A stretch of 64,000 nucleotides of DNA from a virus. The notes under the pieces were generated by a model that saw only the letters and a list, made by a program, of their open reading frames with translations, ran no database searches and was not told the origin of the DNA. Each line of letters starts with the position of its first letter. Position 1 is the first letter of the stretch. Where the stretch lies: the IMG/VR virus record IMGVR_UViG_3300021976_000006, positions 30,232 to 94,231 of that record; one strand, given 5' to 3'. Positions 30,212 to 46,111 of this stretch are shown in pieces. The position numbers and the translations under genes were made by a program.

Positions 30212-31010
30212 ACTTTTCTATAACTTCATTTAACTTAGTAACATCTTTATTATCAACAGCATCTTTAATACTTAACCAGAACTCTAATTGAAGAGTTGCT
30301 TCTTCCCACATTAAACTCCATTGTTCTGATGATATTTGATTGTCTTCCATATTATTTATAATTTTGATAACTTAACTCTTTAACCCAGTTTGTATTATCA
30401 AGATAATAAAGTTTACCATCAATATTAATTACAATTGTATTATTCTCCATCTTCTTTAACTTCCATATTAATATTCTTAGCTTTTAAAGCTTTTCTGAAT
30501 TCTCTAAGGAATTCTTCACCAGCAGGTAGATTACTATAGTCTTCAAAGTTCTTAACTAGTTCTCGTAGCTTAATAGTCTTTCTTAGTGCACTTTTATTTT
30601 TTATCATATTAATTATTTTGTTCCCAGTCTGTAAACTTTACTGTTTTATATTTGCTTGCCCATGTACCTTTCTTTCTTTTAGAAACTTGTACTGTACCAA
30701 ATTGTTTTCTTATACCTAATTTTTTAAAATACTTTTTTGCCATAGTTTTATGAATATAAAATAGTTTATAATTTTATTCATTTATTAATTAACATGTCCT
30801 TAGGACATAGAGAGGTTTCCTGCAAGAATCTCTTCTTACATTCTCCTTGGCTTACATATTGATTGAAGTCGTCATACCTCTCAAAACCCGTTAATACTGG
30901 AGAGTGCTTATACCCATCTTTTATCCAGTCAACAATCACTATTGTAAGTTGCTTAAACTCATGATACAAAGGTAAGTAAAATAATTGATAAATCCTAATA
31001 ATATTGGATA

Positions 31011-35992: not shown

Positions 35993-36247
35993 ATGAAAAA
36001 GATAATAATACCAAATATAACTGGCGATGAAATACCTATTGAAAACATTAAAAAACGTGATAAAATATTAGTTAAAGACAGAAGTAATAATATACTTGGT
36101 ATAGTTGCAATTATTGAAGATGGTAGTGGTGATGATTATTTTAAAATTATACAGTTTAATGGTAAACATAGTGATCAACATTCTAAAACATTAAATCAAT
36201 TAATGATACTTTACAACAATTATAATTTCTATTTATTAGAAGAATAA
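35993..36247 (+). CDS. Hypothetical protein
   Basis: ORF track. Confidence 0.45.
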   Translation: MKKIIIPNITGDEIPIENIKKRDKILVKDRSNNILGIVAIIEDGSGDDYFKIIQFNGKHSDQHSKTLNQLMILYNNYNFYLLEE

Positions 36248-36254
36248 CCATTAA

Positions 36255-37077
36255 TTTCTCAACAAGTTTATGACTTCTGTATATATTGATTAAATATAAT
36301 AGCTTCAGGGCTATCACCTATTGATATATACGCATAGATTTACATAAATGGCACGGCAAAACCAGTTGAAATTTAATACCAATATATCTGCTAAGAAGTA
36401 TATTATTTATAGTATATAAGCTGTAAATTGAGAAAATAGGCGTAAAATATAATAAAAGAATGGTAAATTGAGTAGTGGTATTTATATCATGAACATATGA
36501 AAACAGAGTAACTATTATATTACTACCTAGAAGTAAGATTTAAGAATGAGGATTCAACTTCCTCTATATTGGCAAAAATAAATATCTATCCAACAAAATA
36601 TGTTATAACATAGCAGGTAGTTTACTACAATTTACACAAGTTCCCCAGCTAATAGAATAATTTTGTAGTTAAAATCTATTGGGTAAAGGAAATTCAAGGT
36701 GCAACCTTGTAGATATTTATTTAAAAACATTAACCAATTAATCTGTGCAATAGGAGATAATCAGTGGGCACTGTTCTCTATCTACAGTGGGATGGGCTTA
36801 CCACACCTAATTGGTTAAAAAAAACATAATAGACTTCCTGCTCGATGCAGATAAATGAGAGGGGATTCTAACTCATAAGCTAATCCAATAGCTGTTGTCT
36901 GACTAGAGATAGTGGAGAGAAGACCCTTAAATGTCATAATAACATTTGACATCTATTCCTTTGGAAAGACAGGAAGTTTATTTAAAAATACTAATTTCAT
37001 AGTTAGTTAAGTTTAGGGTTAAATAGTAAGGTGTACTCCCGGAGAGATTAAATGTCATAAAGCAGCCTTACTATTTA
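36255..37077 (+). ncRNA. Tandem cluster of about six structured RNA modules
   Basis: No ORF of 60 aa or more for ~840 nt. Consecutive closing stems at 36255/36435, 36576/36722, 36730/36818, 36828/36982 and 37020/37077, plus a tRNA-like T-arm at 36548-36564. Confidence 0.6.
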
Positions 37078-37497
37078 TTAAATCAAAGAAATGAAACTAC
37101 CAAGAAAATTAAAGAAGAAGTTTTACAAGATAAGACTTCATCGCTACAAATTATATTTGCAACAAGATTTTAATTGGATATTTAAAAGAAGAATGGTTAT
37201 TGTATATAATTATGTATTAGCCAATATTCCAATTAAATTATCTAATAATGATTTAATATTTATAAAAAATGGTTTATTAAGTAGTCCTAAATTTAAAAAA
37301 GATGTATAAAATAACAATTGAAATAAATATGTGGAGCAACTATGTTGTTACTTTACACAGAAGATTTTTATTTATCTATTGGAGATTAGGTGAATATATT
37401 ACTCCTAACGAAAGTAGAATGAAAGGTCAAATCTTTCAATGGATGAATAAATATAAAATATCATCAGAAAAAGTAATTTACTTAAACAATAATTAAT

Positions 37498-37725
37498 ATG
37501 AAAACAATTTATAAGAAATTAATACTATTAGTAGTATTATTAGCTTTAATATCAGCAATATTATATGGTGCTGGTGCGGGTAGTAATGGTTTATTATCAA
37601 TAGCTAAATGGAGTGAAGAATCAAGAGCTTGCTTAATGGGTTTTTGGGCAGTATTTGCATTAATATCTGTAATAGTTGCTTTAACAATAGATAATGATGG
37701 TATTAATACTATAATGGGTGATTAA
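37498..37725 (+). CDS. Small membrane protein (2 TM)
   Basis: Two hydrophobic segments. Confidence 0.5.
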   Translation: MKTIYKKLILLVVLLALISAILYGAGAGSNGLLSIAKWSEESRACLMGFWAVFALISVIVALTIDNDGINTIMGD

Positions 37726-37899
37726 TTATGCCAATAATATTAAGATTATGTATAGTACTATTAATATTATTTACATTATTATTTTCAGCAATTGAGCTAA
37801 TATTATTTATACCAATATATTTATTTACTGGTAAAATGTTTATAACAGCATCATATGTTGATGAACTATTAAAAAGAATAAGAAAAAATTTAAAAAACT

Positions 37900-38643
37900 A
37901 TGAATAAAATAACCACAAGGTGGAGTATACTAGGTATATTTCTACTATCTTTAGTATTCTTTAATACTAATGCACAGGATAAACATATTATTGAAAAATT
38001 AGATGGTACAAAAGTAGTTGTAACTACATTAAATAGTTATGATAAAACTGTAGCTCAAGTATCAAATGGTGTAGGAACTGTTTATGATGATTTAAAATCA
38101 GCTGCACCTAAAGTAGGTGATGCTATTAAAAGTCTCTCTAAAGAGCTTAAAGTAGGTGCTAATAAAGTATGGGATGTGTTAGTTAAACAACAACTTGTTT
38201 GGTCTGTTGCATTTTTACTATTAACATTAACATCAATAACCAATTGGTATATATTTTATAAGCGTAATTTTCCTAAACTCAATAAAGATTCATTTATTAT
38301 GGGTAAAAGAGATAATTATGTTAATATACCTAATCCAGAATTTAGTCAAAATTGGTATGATATATGGTCAGGTGATAATAGTAATTATAATGCTGATAAG
38401 AAAAGAGATATTCGATACCAAAAAACTATTAGAGTATTAGAAGGTCAAATTGATATTGTATTACCCAAACCAGATTTATCAAAAGAATACGGTATGAGTG
38501 GATTTAAATATTTACATCTTGTAATTTGTATTTTATTATCATTGCTATCTTTTTATCATTTTAATGATATGTTAACAGGTTTTATGAATCCGGAGTTTGG
38601 TGCGATGAAAACTATTGCAGAGATTGCATCTCAAATTAAATAA
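37900..38643 (+). CDS. Membrane protein with signal peptide
   Basis: N-terminal signal (…NTNAQ) plus two TM segments. Confidence 0.55.
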   Translation: MNKITTRWSILGIFLLSLVFFNTNAQDKHIIEKLDGTKVVVTTLNSYDKTVAQVSNGVGTVYDDLKSAAPKVGDAIKSLSKELKVGANKVWDVLVKQQLVWSVAFLLLTLTSITNWYIFYKRNFPKLNKDSFIMGKRDNYVNIPNPEFSQNWYDIWSGDNSNYNADKKRDIRYQKTIRVLEGQIDIVLPKPDLSKEYGMSGFKYLHLVICILLSLLSFYHFNDMLTGFMNPEFGAMKTIAEIASQIK

Positions 38644-39259
38644 TTATGTTGTTTGCAATATTAAAAGTTCTAATATTCTCCTTATTAGGAGGATTTATAG
38701 GACAACTAATTTTCAGACATAGATCTGATTGTGCTTATGAAATATTCAGAGAAATATTTGAAATTAGTTTAATCATTACAGGAGTTTTTACAATATTAAT
38801 TATATTATCTTTATTTATAAATATATAACCATGGCAGTGATTTTAACAATACACGGAAAAGACGAAACAAAGCAAGTAACTAAAATGACTAATGTTGTTT
38901 TGTTAGATCATAAGAATAAACCATTATCTACTGATAAATGGTTAGAGAAGTTATATGAAATAGCTTCAACAATTGCAGGTAAAAATTACAGAGGTCATAA
39001 ATTTGAAATAACATGATATTAATAATTGTACTACTCGTAATACTTTCTACTATAATAGATTGTATAATTTATTATTCATTAGAAAAACCATTCAGAGAAC
39101 CATGGATGTTAGTTCCATATTCTTGTTTACTTTATACATCTATAATAGTAATTTTATTATTATGGTGGAGATTTAAATATCCATTAAGGAAATAGAAGAA
39201 GAGGGGTTTTTTGTTTAAAGTTTTGTTTATCCTTAAAATAAATCAAAACTTATTAAACT

Positions 39260-39629
39260 GGGGGTGCCTGGTTTTGACATTTAGTGATTATTATATTTTC
39301 AGCGGTTGGAAGCTTATATACAACCTTAAAATTTTAAGTAAACAATAACAGGCAAAACAATTAAATTGTCAGAAACAACTTTCAACGATATAATGCGTCA
39401 AGTATCTAACGTTGAATTAGAAATGGCTGCGTAAGCAATCATTAGATTAGGATATTAAGGGATTTTTAACCTTCAACTTAAAATTCCATCATTTTCCCAA
39501 TTTAGATTAGTGTAAATTGGATAACTTTTTCTAGGTTTTTTGAATAAAAATCTAGTTATTTTGTTAAAAGCTGTAACAAGAGATATAGTATTTTTTAGAT
39601 GGACAAGGGTTCGACTCCCTTCACCTCCA
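39260..39629 (+). ncRNA. ssrA: tmRNA
   Basis: 5' GGGGGTG pairs with 3' CACCTCC-A, including the G3.U70 Ala determinant. 5' ...TGGTTTTGAC and 3' GGAC-AAGGG-TTCGACT-CCCTT T-arm are present. Internal tag ORF 39351-39434 ends ...LEMAA*. Confidence 0.92.
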
Positions 39630-39808
39630 CGTAATACCCTGATTATCAATTAATTAGATAATATTCTACACGTTTGATTAGCGTTGGGATAAATAAATCG
39701 ATCTGCTTGTAGGCTCAAGGTAACCTTCAATAAATAATACAGGTGACACGTAGTCTTTGTACTCTCGGGAGTAACTGTATTATTATTTTAAACTTAAATT
39801 AAATAATT

Positions 39809-40285
39809 ATGAAAAAGAAATTAGAATTAGATGATCAAACTGCAAGATCAATATATAAAATAGCAGATATAGCAACTAAATTAGTATTAGAATCTAACTG
39901 GGGAAAAGAATTTTTTAGTGAAAAATTATCTGATAGAATTAAATCGTATGTAGATGTTTGTAAAGAATTATGTAGACCTATTTTAACAATAAAAGATTTT
40001 AAATTTTTACCTGAAAATCAAAGAGCTAAAGCTTTAGCAAATCACCAATGGGAAAATATTAGTGAATTATTTAACCAAGGATGGAAACCAGATTTTACAA
40101 ATATAAATCAAGCTAAATATTATGTTTGGTATGAAAGAAAATCTACTGGTTGGGTGGTGTGCTACTTCAGCGATCGGGGCTACTATTCTATCTGTGGGTC
40201 TGGTTTTTACTTTAAAGATTCAGAAACAGCTTTATATGTAGCTAATACATTTTTACCAATAATGACCATTATTTTAGAACCATAG
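39809..40285 (+). CDS. DGR target protein 1 (158 aa)
   Basis: Contains VR1 (40146-40211), matching TR1 except at adenines. Confidence 0.9.
   Translation: MKKKLELDDQTARSIYKIADIATKLVLESNWGKEFFSEKLSDRIKSYVDVCKELCRPILTIKDFKFLPENQRAKALANHQWENISELFNQGWKPDFTNINQAKYYVWYERKSTGWVVCYFSDRGYYSICGSGFYFKDSETALYVANTFLPIMTIILEP
40146..40211 (+). repeat. DGR variable repeat VR1
   Basis: 66-nt match to 40315-40380; 17 mismatches, 16 of them at template A. Confidence 0.93.
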
Positions 40286-40314
40286 GGTTACATATTTTAC
40301 TTATAGTTTTATAT

Positions 40315-40380
40315 CTAGTTAGGTAGTGAACTACTACAACAATCAGAACTACAATTCTAACTATGAGTCTAGTTTCTACT
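40315..40380 (+). repeat. DGR template repeat TR1
   Basis: Intergenic, AAC/AAT/TAC-rich copy of VR1 upstream of the RT. Confidence 0.93.
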
Positions 40381-40482
40381 CAATAATAAATACTAATATG
40401 AACCTCACCTCTTGGTGAAAAAAAGCGAAATCCAGAAAAGACATTAGTATATTAATAGAAAATGTCTTATGTTGAGTAAAAA

Positions 40483-41439
40483 ATGAAAAGAATAAATAAC
40501 CTCTATAATGATATTTGTAGTATTAATAATCTTATTCTAGCTGATAAAAAAGCTAGAATAGGAAAGTTAAAACAACTAGATATTATAAAACACGATAAAG
40601 CAAAAGGATGTAATATTTTAAAACTTCATAATATATTAATGGAGGAAAAATATAAAACATCTAAATATCATATATTTACTATATATGAAGGTAAGAAAAG
40701 AGAAATATATAAATTACCATATTATCCTGATAGAATAGTTCATCATGCTATTATGAATAAACTTGAATCTATTTTTGTATCTATATTTATTTCTAATACA
40801 TTTAATTGTATTAAAAATAGAGGAATAATGGGAGCTTATAAAGCTGTTAAAAAATCATTATTAGATATAGAAAATACTCAATATTGTTTAAAATTAGATA
40901 TAAGAAAATTTTATCCTAATATTAATAATAATATTTTAAAACTATTATTAAGAAAAAAGTTCAAAGATGAAAAATTACTAAAATTATTAGATGAAATTAT
41001 TAATAGTACAAAAGGACTACCAATTGGAAATTATTTAAGTCAATATTTTGCTAATTTTTATTTAACATATTTTGATCATTGGTTAAAAGAAATTAAAGGT
41101 GTTAAATATTATTTTAGATATTGTGATGATTTAGTTATATTATCTAGTAATAAGGAATATTTACATTTGCTATTTTTAGATATTCAAGATTATTTATCAA
41201 ATATATTAAAATTAGAAATTAAAAAAAACTATCAAATATTTCCAGTTAATATAAGAGGTATTGATTTTGTTGGTTATAAATTTTATCATAAATATATTTT
41301 ACTTAGAAAATCTATAAAGAAAAGATTCATTAAAGTTGCAAAATATAGTAAAGCTATACAATCATTAGCTGCTTATTTTGGATGGTTAAAATATTGTAAT
41401 AGCATAAACTTAAGAAATAAATATTTAAAAGATGAATAA
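40483..41439 (+). CDS. DGR-type reverse transcriptase
   Basis: YYPDRIVHHA, LKLDIRKFY, GLPIGNYLSQ (SQ signature of DGR RTs), YFRYCDD, GIDFVGY; 318 aa with no maturase, endonuclease or RNase H domain. Confidence 0.95.
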   Translation: MKRINNLYNDICSINNLILADKKARIGKLKQLDIIKHDKAKGCNILKLHNILMEEKYKTSKYHIFTIYEGKKREIYKLPYYPDRIVHHAIMNKLESIFVSIFISNTFNCIKNRGIMGAYKAVKKSLLDIENTQYCLKLDIRKFYPNINNNILKLLLRKKFKDEKLLKLLDEIINSTKGLPIGNYLSQYFANFYLTYFDHWLKEIKGVKYYFRYCDDLVILSSNKEYLHLLFLDIQDYLSNILKLEIKKNYQIFPVNIRGIDFVGYKFYHKYILLRKSIKKRFIKVAKYSKAIQSLAAYFGWLKYCNSINLRNKYLKDE

Positions 41440-41827
41440 GAAAGAAGCAGAAAAAGCTTTAAATAAGCTACAATTAGAAGTTAATAAACTCAGAGATATA
41501 ATAGATGCTCCTGAAAGTTTATTTGATATTACTACATATACAGAAGTATGTAAAAGATTAAATATTACAGAGAAGTCTTTAAGTGAATTTGAAACTCTTA
41601 AAGAGTATAGATACCATCAGATATTAAATATTCAGAAATTATTCAATGAAGATGCTGTAAATCCTAGATGGTATCCTTGGTTCTCTAGAACTGGTTCTGG
41701 TCTGGTTTTCTTCATTTCTTCCTGCTTCAGTGACTGCTACTATGGGCAGGTTGCTTACTTCAAAGATAAAAAAACCTCTGATTATATAGGTAAGACATTT
41801 AAATTTATCTATAACGATTTAAAATAA
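41432..41827 (+). CDS. DGR target protein 2 (131 aa), paralog of target 1
   Basis: Overlaps the RT stop; contains VR2; shares Y..VCK.L...F....HQ..NI..LFN....Y.W(F/Y)...YFKD..T..Y...TF..I with target 1. Confidence 0.9.
   Translation: MNKKEAEKALNKLQLEVNKLRDIIDAPESLFDITTYTEVCKRLNITEKSLSEFETLKEYRYHQILNIQKLFNEDAVNPRWYPWFSRTGSGLVFFISSCFSDCYYGQVAYFKDKKTSDYIGKTFKFIYNDLK
41689..41756 (+). repeat. DGR variable repeat VR2
   Basis: 68-nt match to 41846-41913; all 18 mismatches at template A. Confidence 0.93.
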
Positions 41828-41845
41828 TAATATAGGTCAATATTA

Positions 41846-41913
41846 AACTAGTTCTAGTCTAGTTTTCAACAATTCTAACTACAACAATGACAACTACAAT
41901 GAGCAAGTTACTT
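41846..41913 (+). repeat. DGR template repeat TR2
   Basis: Intergenic A-rich copy of VR2, distinct in sequence from TR1. Confidence 0.93.
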
Positions 41914-42041
41914 TTACTTTAACAATATTGATGTTGACCATAGCTCTTGCTAAAAAAATAAAATTAATAAAAAAGTCTTTAGTAATATTTATGAAAGAGA
42001 CTTATAAAAGTAAAATTAATATTAAAAACCTAAATTAAATA

Positions 42042-42530
42042 ATGAAGAAATTACTATACTTTGCTTATGGTAGCAATTTACTAAGTGCTAGATTAAGAGC
42101 TAGAATTGGTAGTGCTATCCATTTTAAGAACTATCGACTCAAAGACTATAAACTAACATTTGATTGTCAAGGATATGCTAATATACAAAGATCTATTGGA
42201 GATCATGTAGAAGGATGTTTATACAGTGTATCAGGTGAAGAATTAGCAATGTTAAATCAATATGAAGCTTTATATCATGCAGAGTTCTTTGAGTATGATT
42301 CTGATACTATAATTGCTATTTATATTGGTAATTATGAACCTGTTAAACACTCAAGAGTACATAATTTAGCTCCAATGAGAGCATACTTAGAAATTGTTAT
42401 GTTAGGTATGTTAGAGAAAGGATTAAAGCTATCTCATGACAAAGTTAAAAGGATTTATGATTCATTACCATTAGAAAGAGTTCATATTAAGTCTAACAGA
42501 AAAGCTAAACGCTTTAGAAAAAGAAAATAA
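42042..42530 (+). CDS. Gamma-glutamylcyclotransferase (AIG2/GGCT-like)
   Basis: YFAYGSNL...ANI...VEGCLY...LNQYE. Confidence 0.85.
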   Translation: MKKLLYFAYGSNLLSARLRARIGSAIHFKNYRLKDYKLTFDCQGYANIQRSIGDHVEGCLYSVSGEELAMLNQYEALYHAEFFEYDSDTIIAIYIGNYEPVKHSRVHNLAPMRAYLEIVMLGMLEKGLKLSHDKVKRIYDSLPLERVHIKSNRKAKRFRKRK

Positions 42531-42642
42531 CCAGTAAAATGTGCCTTTTTAAGGTAGAGGAACAATAACGTATTTGAGTAGCCAAAAGCTAATGTCAAAT
42601 GGAACAACCTCATAGCTTCATTTAGTTATCAATTTACACCCA

Positions 42643-42750
42643 GGTAGGATAGTATAAATTATATATAAAATACTTTGATATTTTATATATTTCTGGAATT
42701 ACGATAGGCTCGTTGTCTTATTGATGGTGATTCGAGTTCACCTCCTACAA
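42643..42750 (+). ncRNA. tRNA-like element / pseudo-tRNA
   Basis: GTAGGA/TCCTAC acceptor, canonical T-arm GGTGA-TTCGAGT-TCACC, 8-nt anticodon-like loop, ~30-nt hairpin inserted in the D-loop. Confidence 0.5.
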
Positions 42751-42889
42751 CAAAGTAGTAATACTTAGTAAGTTGATTATCTGATCTTACTTTAAATAAA
42801 ACAGGTTGTGGTTAAGTGATGAAAGATTTGTGAAATAAATGGTTAACTGGTAGGTAGTTTTTATCTACCAGTTATTTAAAATAAAAAAT

Positions 42890-43591
42890 ATGTACAATTT
42901 AGATACAAATATATTAGGTTTATTGAATAAGCCTGATAGTGAAGAGAAAGTTAAGGAACTATTGTCAGATTGGACATCCCAATTAGCAGATAGAACAATT
43001 AGATTTAGAAAAGATCAATCTCCTAGAAGTTTTAAAGATTTATTATATAAATTCTTTTACGAAAAAATACCTACTTATGAAGGTAGATCAAAACAATGTG
43101 ATCAAGGTAGAAGAAGAAGTTTAATAGATTTCTTTATGTTACAAAAGCATTATTTAGTTAAACCATTATCTATAGAAGAATGTTATGATATATATTTTAA
43201 TAGACTTAATAGAAGTGTAGATGATTATGCTAAAAGGCTAAAAACAATGGCTTACGGTGATATATATATACAAAACTCAATAATGAGAGAATTAACTCAT
43301 TATTATTGTCCTACTGTAAAGAGAAATGTATTTATTAAACATGTTCCTTATGAACCAATATTCTATGATGAAAATTATAGAAGAATAATTAAAGAAGACA
43401 CTAGAACTATTGATCAAAAATATAAAGATGACAAATTAGATCAATTTGATAAATATGACGCTAAAATAACTAGTGATAGAAGAAAAGTATCAGAAGTTAT
43501 ATCAGATACTATTGAAATAACCAAAGAGAAAATTGGTAAAATAAATATTAAAATGGCTACTAGACTACCTATGTTTAGTAATAACACTTGA
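42890..43591 (+). CDS. Hypothetical protein (paralog of 46111-46599)
   Basis: Shares FF...TY...C....RRS..D and YC....K.V motifs. Confidence 0.55.
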   Translation: MYNLDTNILGLLNKPDSEEKVKELLSDWTSQLADRTIRFRKDQSPRSFKDLLYKFFYEKIPTYEGRSKQCDQGRRRSLIDFFMLQKHYLVKPLSIEECYDIYFNRLNRSVDDYAKRLKTMAYGDIYIQNSIMRELTHYYCPTVKRNVFIKHVPYEPIFYDENYRRIIKEDTRTIDQKYKDDKLDQFDKYDAKITSDRRKVSEVISDTIEITKEKIGKINIKMATRLPMFSNNT

Positions 43592-43680
43592 AGAGATACA
43601 AATCCTAGATTTACTAATAAATCAAAAGGATTTAAAACATATAATAGAAAAATTATTAAATAATAAACTTAAAACTAATT

Positions 43681-44826
43681 ATGAAACAGTATAAATTAAT
43701 AAAAGAATATCCCGGATCTCTTAAATTAAATGTAAAAATACATAGAAACTTTGAAACAGGTTATGGATATAGCTGGGTTGGTGGAGGTATTATACATGGA
43801 GGATTAACAGATGAACATGTATATAATAATCCAGAATTTTGGGAGGAAATAGTTGAAAAAGATTATGAAGTATTAGCTATAATAGGAAATACATCTGGTA
43901 TAATTTACAATTTAGATGGTAATAAATTCATTGATAAAGATGGATATAAAATAACTAATTTTCCACATAATAATAGTGGTTGTAAAATTCTTACTGTAAA
44001 ACGCTTATATGATAATCAAATATTTATAGTGGGAGATGATATTCTTGAACAAAATGAACATTCTAAAATAGAATATTTTGAATTAAGAGGAGATGATTTA
44101 GTTTTAAGAATTAATCATCAGGTAACCAAAGGATCATCAACTATTGATATTAATAGTAAATTTGAGAAATATGTTCCTAAAGATTATGAGATATTATCTT
44201 TTAGAGATAAAAATGGTACTGGTATTTTTAAATCAGCATTAGTAATTAGAACCTCTAAAAATTTATTTGGTTGGGAATTTAACCAAACTGCTGGATATAG
44301 TACTGAAGAAGATATGTTATTAACTATTGAACAAAATGTATTTGAAATTCATTCAGTAAAAAGATTATCAGACGGAGAAGTATTTACTATCGGTGATAAG
44401 ATAGAAAATATAAAATATGATACTGTTCGAGGAAATATAAACAAAATAATATTAGAAGATGGTTATATTCAAATATGGTATAAATGTAATACAAATTCAT
44501 TTGATAGATTAGAAAATATATATATAATTACAAATCCATTATTCAAAACAGAAGACGGTGTTGATATATTTGTAGGTGATACTATTTATTGTGTATCTCT
44601 TTATTCATTTGCTTTATGGAATGGAAAAATGAGTACAACTAATTATAGAACTTATTATCATAAGAGAAATAAAACGTTTTCAACTAAAGAAGCAGCGGAA
44701 GAATATATTATAATGAATAAACCTTGTTTATCTTTAGAAGATGTGTATGGATGTACAGAAACACATTCTATGACACTTGCTGCATGTACTTTAACAAAAT
44801 TAGTAAAATCAAGAATATGCCAATAG
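43681..44826 (+). CDS. Hypothetical protein with internal domain duplication
   Basis: KDYE(V/I)L and VKRL.D...F.(V/I)GD each occur twice. Confidence 0.6.
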   Translation: MKQYKLIKEYPGSLKLNVKIHRNFETGYGYSWVGGGIIHGGLTDEHVYNNPEFWEEIVEKDYEVLAIIGNTSGIIYNLDGNKFIDKDGYKITNFPHNNSGCKILTVKRLYDNQIFIVGDDILEQNEHSKIEYFELRGDDLVLRINHQVTKGSSTIDINSKFEKYVPKDYEILSFRDKNGTGIFKSALVIRTSKNLFGWEFNQTAGYSTEEDMLLTIEQNVFEIHSVKRLSDGEVFTIGDKIENIKYDTVRGNINKIILEDGYIQIWYKCNTNSFDRLENIYIITNPLFKTEDGVDIFVGDTIYCVSLYSFALWNGKMSTTNYRTYYHKRNKTFSTKEAAEEYIIMNKPCLSLEDVYGCTETHSMTLAACTLTKLVKSRICQ

Positions 44827-45247
44827 AATTAATAATACTTATTACTTATATTATAATAGCAATAATAGCAGCAGCTATAGCAAATGTATATTTTCCTTTT
44901 AATCAAGGAGATAATCCACCAGAATTTATTTTTGGAATGCTTTGGCCATTAGTTATAGTAATATTTACAGTTCATTTACCTTATAAATATTTAGTAATTT
45001 TAATACAAAACCTTAAAAATCATGTTAATACCAAAGAATAACTATTTAAAAAATGTATCAACATTCTTTATTGAATTGTTGAATTTTACTATGATGATAT
45101 TCATAGTTTTTGTGTCAATTATATTATCTTCATTGGTAATAGAATTTGCAAAGTTTCAAGAAGTTTGGGCTAATTTATTCATAATGGTAGGTACATTAGT
45201 ATTTGCATTAAGATTAACTTATTTTCTAAAGATTAAATCACAATTAG

Positions 45248-45628
45248 ATGAAATCACTTGAAATAACGAATAACCAAAAATTGATGATTCTGGAAATGGC
45301 TAAAAAGTTGTTTCCAGAATTTGATATTTTATTTAATCAAGTGGGTTTTGAAGATTATGTGTTTTTTGATATAAAAGATGAACAATCTGATAATTTATTT
45401 AGGATTATTGATAGTAATCATCCTATACAAAAAGAAGAATGTAGAATTCATTGGTTTGAATTTTGTATGGTACATTTACCTGAAAGATTCTATCCAAAAT
45501 ATGACACATTTATAAATGGTACAGGAGCCGATTTTTCTGAAGATCATTTTGCAGAATGTATTATACGCAAATTAGAACACCCTGTAGAATATATTTATAA
45601 ACAATTTAAAAATATGTATTCAAAATGA
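45248..45628 (+). CDS. Hypothetical protein
   Basis: ORF track, coupled to neighbours. Confidence 0.5.
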   Translation: MKSLEITNNQKLMILEMAKKLFPEFDILFNQVGFEDYVFFDIKDEQSDNLFRIIDSNHPIQKEECRIHWFEFCMVHLPERFYPKYDTFINGTGADFSEDHFAECIIRKLEHPVEYIYKQFKNMYSK

Positions 45629-45793
45629 TTGGTATAATTAGTAAAGCAGTTAAACCAGAAGAGGCGTTAAAGATGATAAATAGATTTATATCATCATCCT
45701 TATTTGGTGAGGCCTCTACTAAAGAAAAAGAATTATTAGTAAGAATAAAACAAGAGTTAAAAAAACAAATAAATAATAAACTAAAACTTTCAA

Positions 45794-46111
45794 ATGATGA
45801 ATAATCAAGAAAAAAAACCATTGTATTTCTATGGTCAAAAACCATATACTGTAACTAAAAATAATAAAAAAGAGAAAATTGTTCGTCGTTTTGCATTAGC
45901 TGGTCTAATTGGTAATGATGGCATAATTAGTATTGGTAAAGCTGTATGTTCTGAAAAGGACATATTTACAAAGAAAAAAGCAAGAGCTATTGCTACTGGT
46001 AGAGCTGGTAAAAAACAAAAGCAAGAAGGCTTGTTAAAAGTAAAAGAAGGAGAAACTCCTGGTGCTAGTTTTGTAAATTATGCTAAAAAATATCAAAAAG
46101 AGGAGGAATAG
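45794..46111 (+). CDS. Conserved phage protein
   Basis: G.AVCS..D.F.KK.AR.IA..RA pattern seen in many phage small proteins. Confidence 0.55.
   Translation: MMNNQEKKPLYFYGQKPYTVTKNNKKEKIVRRFALAGLIGNDGIISIGKAVCSEKDIFTKKKARAIATGRAGKKQKQEGLLKVKEGETPGASFVNYAKKYQKEEE

Follow-up and report, generated by a model that had tools for sequence, protein, structure and literature searches.

In the diversity-generating retroelement (DGR) of BPP-1, the base that the reverse transcriptase (RT) inserts opposite a template adenine depends on sequence context. The error profile is set mainly by the 3′ neighbor of the adenine (PMC12875486, PLoS Genetics 2026), and a template G that has just been read strongly biases the enzyme toward placing C opposite A, which yields an A-to-G change (bioRxiv 10.1101/2025.03.24.644984). 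The mean mutation rate is 30.2% (bioRxiv 10.1101/2025.03.24.644984). At adenines that precede C, the frequency of G insertion is 26.8%, and for the AC/ACC context a transient slippage has been proposed in which the enzyme copies the preceding template base again (PMC12875486). Closer in RT sequence, at no more than 56.7% amino acid identity, are DGRs of crAss-like gut phages and of other Bacteroidota phages and prophages (for example, the uncultured phages cr60_1 and cr115_1, and crAssphage LMMB; PMC7290462), whose RTs are the nearest named relatives in the phage collection to that of the element examined here. This element is a DGR at positions 39,809 to 41,913 of a 64,000-nucleotide stretch of viral DNA (the window), which corresponds to positions 30,232 to 94,231 of IMG/VR virus record IMGVR_UViG_3300021976_000006.

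An original prediction, made from the letters of the window, had proposed that the RT of this element copies an adenine that stands 5′ of G (an ApG adenine) almost always as G, and had regarded this as a departure from the usual, context-tolerant model of adenine mutagenesis. The latter view does not hold, since that model has been revised and a bias of 3′ G toward A-to-G changes has been measured for BPP-1 (bioRxiv 10.1101/2025.03.24.644984). The direction of the bias is already known; its strength in this clade, and the use that the templates make of it, do not appear in the publications consulted. We find that part of each template is, as a strong rather than an absolute rule, a fixed sequence in disguise across related retroelements. 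The cause that we judge to be probable is a strong context bias of the RT, acting together with purifying selection on Gly and Trp scaffold codons.

Template adenines that precede G are G in both variable repeats

The DGR carries two pairs of template repeat (TR) and variable repeat (VR), all on the forward strand. TR1 (positions 40,315–40,380) aligns without gaps to VR1 (40,146–40,211) at an offset of 169, and TR2 (41,847–41,913) aligns likewise to VR2 (41,690–41,756) at an offset of 157. Pair 1 has 16 mismatches at template adenines and one elsewhere, and all 18 mismatches of pair 2 fall at template adenines. The sole mismatch at another base in either pair is a C-to-T change at 40,376, beyond the last ApG site of TR1.

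Six template adenines in TR1 (40,317, 40,321, 40,325, 40,345, 40,366 and 40,371) and five in TR2 (41,850, 41,856, 41,861, 41,902 and 41,906) are followed by G. Every one of these 11 reads G in the VRs, exactly as had been claimed. The remaining 37 template adenines (a count that depends on where the repeat edges are drawn, and that had first been given as 38) read A at 14 sites, T at 12, G at 10 and C at one. The A-to-G outcome at ApG versus other adenines, 11/11 against 10/37, gives a Fisher p of 1.6e-5, or of 0.0018 when only changed sites are compared. Adenine changes total 34, and the gap-free alignment confirms that just one of them is A to C.

When read in the target frame, TR1 has AGT TAG GTA where VR1 has GGT TGG GTG, and the template thus holds an in-frame TAG (40,320–40,322) at the position of a Trp codon in target 1, another claim that stood. 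TAG does act as a stop codon here, given that target 1 itself ends in TAG and that there is no recoding signal. Recoding that would make the template TAG harmless was considered and rejected: read-through of TGA or TAG merges no substantial open reading frames (ORFs), and a window-wide check gave no support for recoding of either codon. Three of the 11 changes are synonymous in the target frames (GTA>GTG, CTA>CTG and CAA>CAG), also as predicted, and eight are non-synonymous, most of which restore a conserved Gly or Trp. Ten of the 11 sites lie in the flanks of the repeats, and one, 40,345 (CAG>CGG), lies clearly in the hypervariable core. Exact searches of viral contigs for the TR1 and TR2 cores returned no other alleles.

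The same outcome prevails among relatives of the RT

We fetched 240 loci whose RTs are 50 to 67% identical to that of the window from viral, metagenome and genome collections, in which no RT of more than 67% identity was found. Those from genome assemblies are nearly all from Bacteroidota. Each locus was scanned along alignment diagonals for pairs of repeats that differ from each other at the adenines of one copy, and the RT adjoins such TR/VR pairs in 211 of the 240 loci. After removal of duplicates, 167 pairs from the viral and metagenome collections and 107 new pairs from genomes were scored, for a total of 274. All of these pairs represent VRs that are already past selection, not complementary DNA (cDNA).

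At ApG adenines the viral and metagenome set gave G at 416 sites, A at 27, C at 11 and T at 30, and the genome set gave G at 230, A at 24, C at six and T at 22. Pooled over all relatives, the outcome is G at 646 of 766 sites, A at 51/766 and C or T at 69/766, with most of the T and C outcomes located at repeat edges. In the hypervariable part, G is the outcome at 28% of the adenines that precede A, at 32% of those before C and at 16% of those before T, and A is kept in 23 to 54%. A comparison of homologous RTs at synonymous ApG sites had been suggested in the original prediction. Four-fold synonymous third positions that precede G read G in 82/87 cases in the viral and metagenome set and in 51/54 in the genome set (133/141 pooled). 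These results confirm that the observation made in the window is real and is not a quirk of two alleles.

Two metagenomic relatives, designated L035 and L114, have RTs that are 61 to 63% identical to the window RT, and repeat its twin-template architecture, in which a target with VR and TR, the RT, and a second target with VR and TR follow one another (L035, 2287–4407; L114, 1833–3989). The targets of the three twin-template elements are paralogous proteins of 124 to 172 amino acids that share two sequences, WYPY/F ahead of the VR and YFKD behind it. In L035, template 1 reads TCT AGT TAG GTA GTG where its VR reads TCT GGT TGG GTG GTG, and template 2 reads AGT TGA GTT where its VR reads GGT TGG GTT. 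Thus, an in-frame stop at a Trp codon recurs in templates, once as TAG and once as TGA. ApG adenines of L035 and L114 became G at 17 of 19 sites, and the synonymous ApG sites of the three elements, window included, are G in 7/7. The proposal that templates mix fixed AG positions with randomized AAY and TAC positions (where Y is C or T) fits the window, L035 and L114 alike.

Selection contributes to the pattern and probably does not account for all of it

The original prediction held that selection on the protein does not explain the ApG changes. This view is supported by the synonymous sites, nearly all of which are G, but selection must contribute, as most ApG sites belong to a Gly and Trp scaffold. 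Indeed, the residue at most of these sites is a Gly or Trp conserved across the six targets of the twin-template elements, and there selection alone would also yield G. It can be argued on this basis that the RT is blind to context, that VRs with Gly, Trp or Arg are the ones that survive, and that G at synonymous sites reflects chance, codon preference or hitch-hiking. Besides the eight non-synonymous sites of the window, such an argument can draw on a group of about 25 long templates (about 120 nucleotides; several from gut samples) with an in-frame TAA close to their 3′ terminus (L045, L047, L057, L062, L066, L068, L069, L072 to L074, L077, L080 and others). The VR copies of these TAA codons are TAT, TAC or TTC and never a stop, which indicates that bad copies are purged. 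In-frame template stops are accordingly not rare in this clade, and in these other templates no fixed copying rule is needed for the stops to be tolerated and purged.

Several observations make selection as the only cause improbable. A context-blind RT predicts G at about 25% of synonymous ApG sites, far from the 133/141 and 7/7 observed. With five or six scaffold ApG sites per template, such an enzyme would produce functional copies at a frequency well under 1%, and yet about half of the GG dinucleotides in VR flanks are written as AG in the templates (235 versus 267), which is hard to reconcile with a real cost. Furthermore, a contrast with the BPP-1 clade, described in the final section, persists at synonymous sites (Fisher p = 0.008). 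Together with the flank data given below, namely ApG-confined differences, sites bracketed within the copied tract and restored 5′ homology arms, the synonymous sites indicate that selection is not the whole story.

Differences in the 5′ flanks are essentially confined to ApG

In the 5′ flanks of the relatives, ApG adenines became G in 215/235 cases, adenines without a following G stayed A in 130/200, and bases other than adenine agree between the repeats in at least 95%. TR/VR differences in these flanks are therefore essentially confined to ApG. Where an ordinary adenine on the 5′ side of an ApG site is mutated, that site lies inside the copied tract, and at such sites the outcome is G in 32/35. 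The consequences for homology are evident in the window, where the longest perfect TR/VR runs in the 5′ arms are, as written, three nucleotides for TR1 and six for TR2, and lengthen to 14 and 21 nucleotides if ApG is read as G. At the 3′ end, the place of a possible initiation of mutagenic homing (IMH) sequence in the VR and of its counterpart IMH* in the template, the VR ends GGGTCTGGT and GGGCAGGTTGCT are G-rich, and the opposite template ends contain A. After them comes a C-to-T mismatch for TR1 and a two-nucleotide indel for TR2.

The 3′ flanks call for a more cautious reading. Here the relatives show uniform differences at sites other than ApG (CAC>CGC and CTA>CTT), plus occasional mismatches at bases other than A. 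For example, a synonymous CTA that precedes TGC, and is not an ApG site, reads T in 68/76 and 51/57 cases. This uniform change, which stands beside the non-A mismatches, looks like a fixed difference of the IMH type, and such fixed differences can mimic a copying rule. A fixed difference between IMH and IMH* is known from BPP-1. It has been described in PMC12875486, and the window sites 40,366, 40,371, 41,902 and 41,906, which lie in the comparable 3′ flank, may be differences of this kind.

A related feature was seen at the VR ends of the relatives, where the sequence GTCGGTTCCCGCCTTTGC is nearly constant and the templates have GTCAGTTCCCACCTATGC or variants of it, including some with non-A mismatches (e.g., L003, 1339–1406). 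This contrast looks like a conserved difference of the IMH/IMH* type that consists mostly of template adenines.

These features raise the question of whether flank ApG sites are copied at all. The 3′ sites could represent a fixed IMH versus IMH* difference that sets the direction of homing, and the 5′ sites could lie beyond the usual crossover, in which case the VR would simply keep its own G. The uniform non-ApG differences and non-A mismatches of the 3′ flanks are in keeping with this possibility, as are the C-to-T change at 40,376 after the last ApG site and the location of ten of the 11 window sites in flanks. It leaves unexplained why flank differences are confined to ApG, why the core site 40,345 changed, and why the bracketed 5′-flank sites read G. 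Moreover, the other adenines of the 5′ flanks are mutated in 35% of cases, and the flank is hence inside the copied tract. On balance we regard the absence of copying as quite unlikely to be the explanation.

Exceptions show a rule that is strong rather than strict

If the RT wrote C at essentially every ApG adenine, the templates would contain hard-coded G residues and no selection would be needed. The 11/11 result in the window, the 17/19 in L035 and L114, and the 133/141 at synonymous sites are what such strict determinism would produce. It would likewise relieve the otherwise costly TAG and TGA codons in templates, and fit the fact that homology of the 5′ arms exists solely after conversion. 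Two exceptions are found in L114, which keeps A at two of its ten ApG sites (TAC AGA GTT > TGC AGG GTT and AAT CAG AAT > TTT CAG GGT). Both have the context CAGA, which in window TR1 became G. In addition, every paralogous VR of L347 and L397 retains A at interior ApG sites, and such retention also occurs in L366 and L389. A hand-picked set of 16 ApG sites in the hypervariable cores of relatives, a small sample chosen to lie between hypervariable codons, gave G at ten sites, A at four and T at two. Automatic definitions of "core" or "dense" regions kept including a conserved Gly codon of the 3′ flank (GTC AGT TC > GTC GGT TC). As for the window itself, its 11 sites cannot separate a rate of about 90% from one of 100%.

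Thus, the ApG-to-G rule is strong and not absolute, and "deterministic," the term used in the original prediction, is too strong. Strict determinism is unlikely. We infer a per-site rate of roughly 60 to 95%.

Besides these exceptions, the conserved Gly and Trp codons and the uniform 3′-flank differences described above, three points weigh against attributing the pattern to the RT. All of the VRs examined have passed selection. Many of the synonymous ApG counts stem from a few conserved flank positions. Lastly, a 3′ G lowers the mutation rate in BPP-1 (bioRxiv 10.1101/2025.03.24.644984), and near-complete conversion here would consequently require a further, putative property of the RT.

Template G may prime the insertion of a second C

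Our inference is that the ApG-to-G changes originate in the RT and not in selection or repair. The template RNA would be copied from its 3′ end, such that in a 5′-AG-3′ dinucleotide the G is read first. After placing C opposite this G, the RT would most often add a second C opposite the adenine, which is an A-to-G change in the coding sense. The likely cause would be that the preceding template base is briefly used a second time, or a similar effect at the primer end. A misalignment of this sort had been put forward in the original prediction, and the same kind of mechanism has been proposed, albeit for the AC/ACC context (PMC12875486). In this RT clade the bias may be strong enough that ApG adenines act as disguised G. 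If so, G-to-A drift at template GpG dinucleotides would be nearly invisible and could accumulate, especially at 29% GC content, and could extend to Gly codons of the scaffold (AGT for GGT) and to a Trp codon as well (TAG for TGG). Rare copies with A, T or C at scaffold codons would then be removed by selection.

Two simpler forms of this mechanism were examined and rejected. In the first, the C that has just been added would be the sole cause. At AAY codons the first A became G in 42% of cases if the second had become G and in 16 to 30% otherwise. This mild effect is far from the approximately 85% observed with a template G and is explicable by selection for Gly, and the just-added C is therefore insufficient. 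The second was a general rule of copying the 3′ neighbor. In the cores of the window clade, C replaces just 3% of the adenines that precede C, and T replaces 19% of those that precede T.

A step outside polymerization could in principle yield near-complete A-to-G conversion without an unusual polymerase, either through A-to-I editing at ApG sites in the template RNA or through repair of cDNA-T:VR-G mismatches toward the resident G. Inosine is read as G, and G:T is the best-repaired mismatch, both of which would suit such a step. Known bacterial RNA editing has a different and narrow motif, however, and no deaminase gene was seen beside the cassette among the ORFs of window positions 36,000 to 46,000. 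Repair, for its part, would be independent of the 3′ neighbor in the template, and faithful copies of A at variable sites, which are retained in 23 to 54%, would be lost to it as well. Both versions are highly improbable.

A more far-reaching extension of the context-bias model is that cDNA made by this Avd-less RT clade, before any selection, carries C opposite 90% or more of the ApG adenines, and that the templates exploit this as a second decoding rule that gives homing its direction. We consider this doubtful. Under such a rule the template DNA would be kept unlike the VR, with in-frame stops and without continuous arms or an IMH, and the cDNA would regenerate perfect arms. Homing would thereby gain direction, and the template would be protected both from homing and from recombination between TR and VR.

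The cassette encodes one RT between two small paralogous targets

The hallmarks of a DGR are present in this region: a DGR-type RT, TR/VR pairs with adenine-specific differences, and VRs in the 3′ part of the target genes. The order of parts is target 1 with VR1, TR1, RT, target 2 with VR2, and TR2, within a complete virus record of 94,231 base pairs with a GC content of 28.7%. Target gene 1 (39,809–40,285; 158 amino acids) and target gene 2 (41,432–41,827; 131 amino acids), both identified in the ORF list, carry their VRs near the C-terminus, and the stop codons of the two ORFs lie 71 to 74 nucleotides downstream of VR1 and VR2. Both TRs are intergenic and close to the RT. The RT gene (40,483–41,439; 318 amino acids), on the forward strand like the targets, matches Pfam RVT_1 (E = 1.7e-14), and the protein shares 31.5% identity with BPP-1 Brt across 97% of its length. 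It contains the motifs YCDD and LPIGNYLSQ, the latter of which includes IGxxxSQ, which we take to be a marker of DGR RTs.

The accessory protein Avd is part of the prototype DGR and is absent from many others. A profile search of the whole 94,231-base-pair record gave no match to PF05635 (Avd), a search that a divergent accessory protein could escape, and the ORF list leaves no spare ORF for an accessory protein inside the cassette. The region is thus an Avd-less DGR in which one RT lies between two small paralogous targets, each with its own TR 3′ of it.

Target 1 is paralogous to target 2 and to the L035 and L114 targets, and has no Pfam match. Its AlphaFold model (predicted local distance difference test score of 86) has N-terminal helices, a beta hairpin at residues 103 to 122, a low-confidence loop formed by the VR and C-terminal helices. 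Comparison of this model with the PDB gave no fold match (best Foldseek E = 0.14; best VIA Z = 4.3) that would place the variable domain in a C-type-lectin or Ig-like fold.

Directly upstream of the DGR, ARAGORN called a transfer-messenger RNA gene at 39,260–39,630, with a tag of 27 residues that ends in AA. A gamma-glutamyl cyclotransferase-like gene (GGACT/AIG2; Pfam E = 3e-7) lies just downstream at 42,042–42,530. Farther along, an ORF at 42,890–43,591 ends at TGA, after which a further 24 in-frame sense codons (the stretch at 43,589–43,663) lead to a TAATAA shortly ahead of the next gene.

Implications and comparison with described DGRs

The overall interpretation offered by the original prediction is partly supported, and we hold to what remains of it with moderate confidence. 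If ApG is effectively G, then counting template adenines overestimates the diversity that such DGRs can generate, and 11 of the 48 template adenines of the window would be fixed. Software that flags in-frame template stops, or many adenine mismatches in flanks, would misjudge such elements. The RT clade would represent a natural variant relative to BPP-1, with near-complete A-to-G conversion at AG and almost no A-to-C conversion at AC, which could be useful for engineered mutagenesis such as DGRec, whose template design relies on context rules. The proposed slippage mechanism would also gain a handle, through comparison of two RT clades whose rates at a single dinucleotide are opposite.

Natural TR/VR pairs allow this comparison to be made directly. 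In 65 pairs of the BPP-1 clade, ApG accounts for 31 of 1487 template adenines (2.1%), which read A at 17 sites, G at 13 and C at one, in agreement with the BPP-1 experiments. In the Hankyphage clade, 39 pairs hold 27 ApG sites among 1014 adenines (2.7%), with A at 12, C at eight, G at five and T at two; the trustworthy sites among these are too few for a firm reading, and many lie at repeat edges. The 167 viral and metagenome pairs of the window clade hold 484 ApG sites, or 11.8% of template adenines, and A is kept at 5.6% of them. The difference between the window and BPP-1 clades at ApG has a Fisher p of 3e-12 overall.

The two clades are alike in that the 3′ neighbor governs insertion, and in that G, not C or T, is the usual product of a change at ApG. 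They differ in that a 3′ G keeps A in the BPP-1 clade (17/31 natural sites), whereas the window clade keeps A at 51/766. Natural BPP-1-clade templates almost avoid ApG, and those of the window clade place it at scaffold Gly and Trp codons, in-frame stops included. The marked A-to-C conversion of BPP-1 at adenines before C (26.8%) is nearly absent in the window clade (3%), and the error profile of this clade thus differs from that of BPP-1 at more than ApG. The enzymes themselves are distant, given the 31.5% identity of the window RT to Brt and the lack of a PF05635 match in the record.

With the crAss-like and Bacteroidota phage DGRs, the window shares a template that lies just upstream of the RT and mismatches that are specific to adenine. 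Most of the relatives have a single template that serves one to three VRs upstream of the RT. The window, L035 and L114 differ from this arrangement in that two complete template and VR cassettes flank the RT, and in that their targets are very small.

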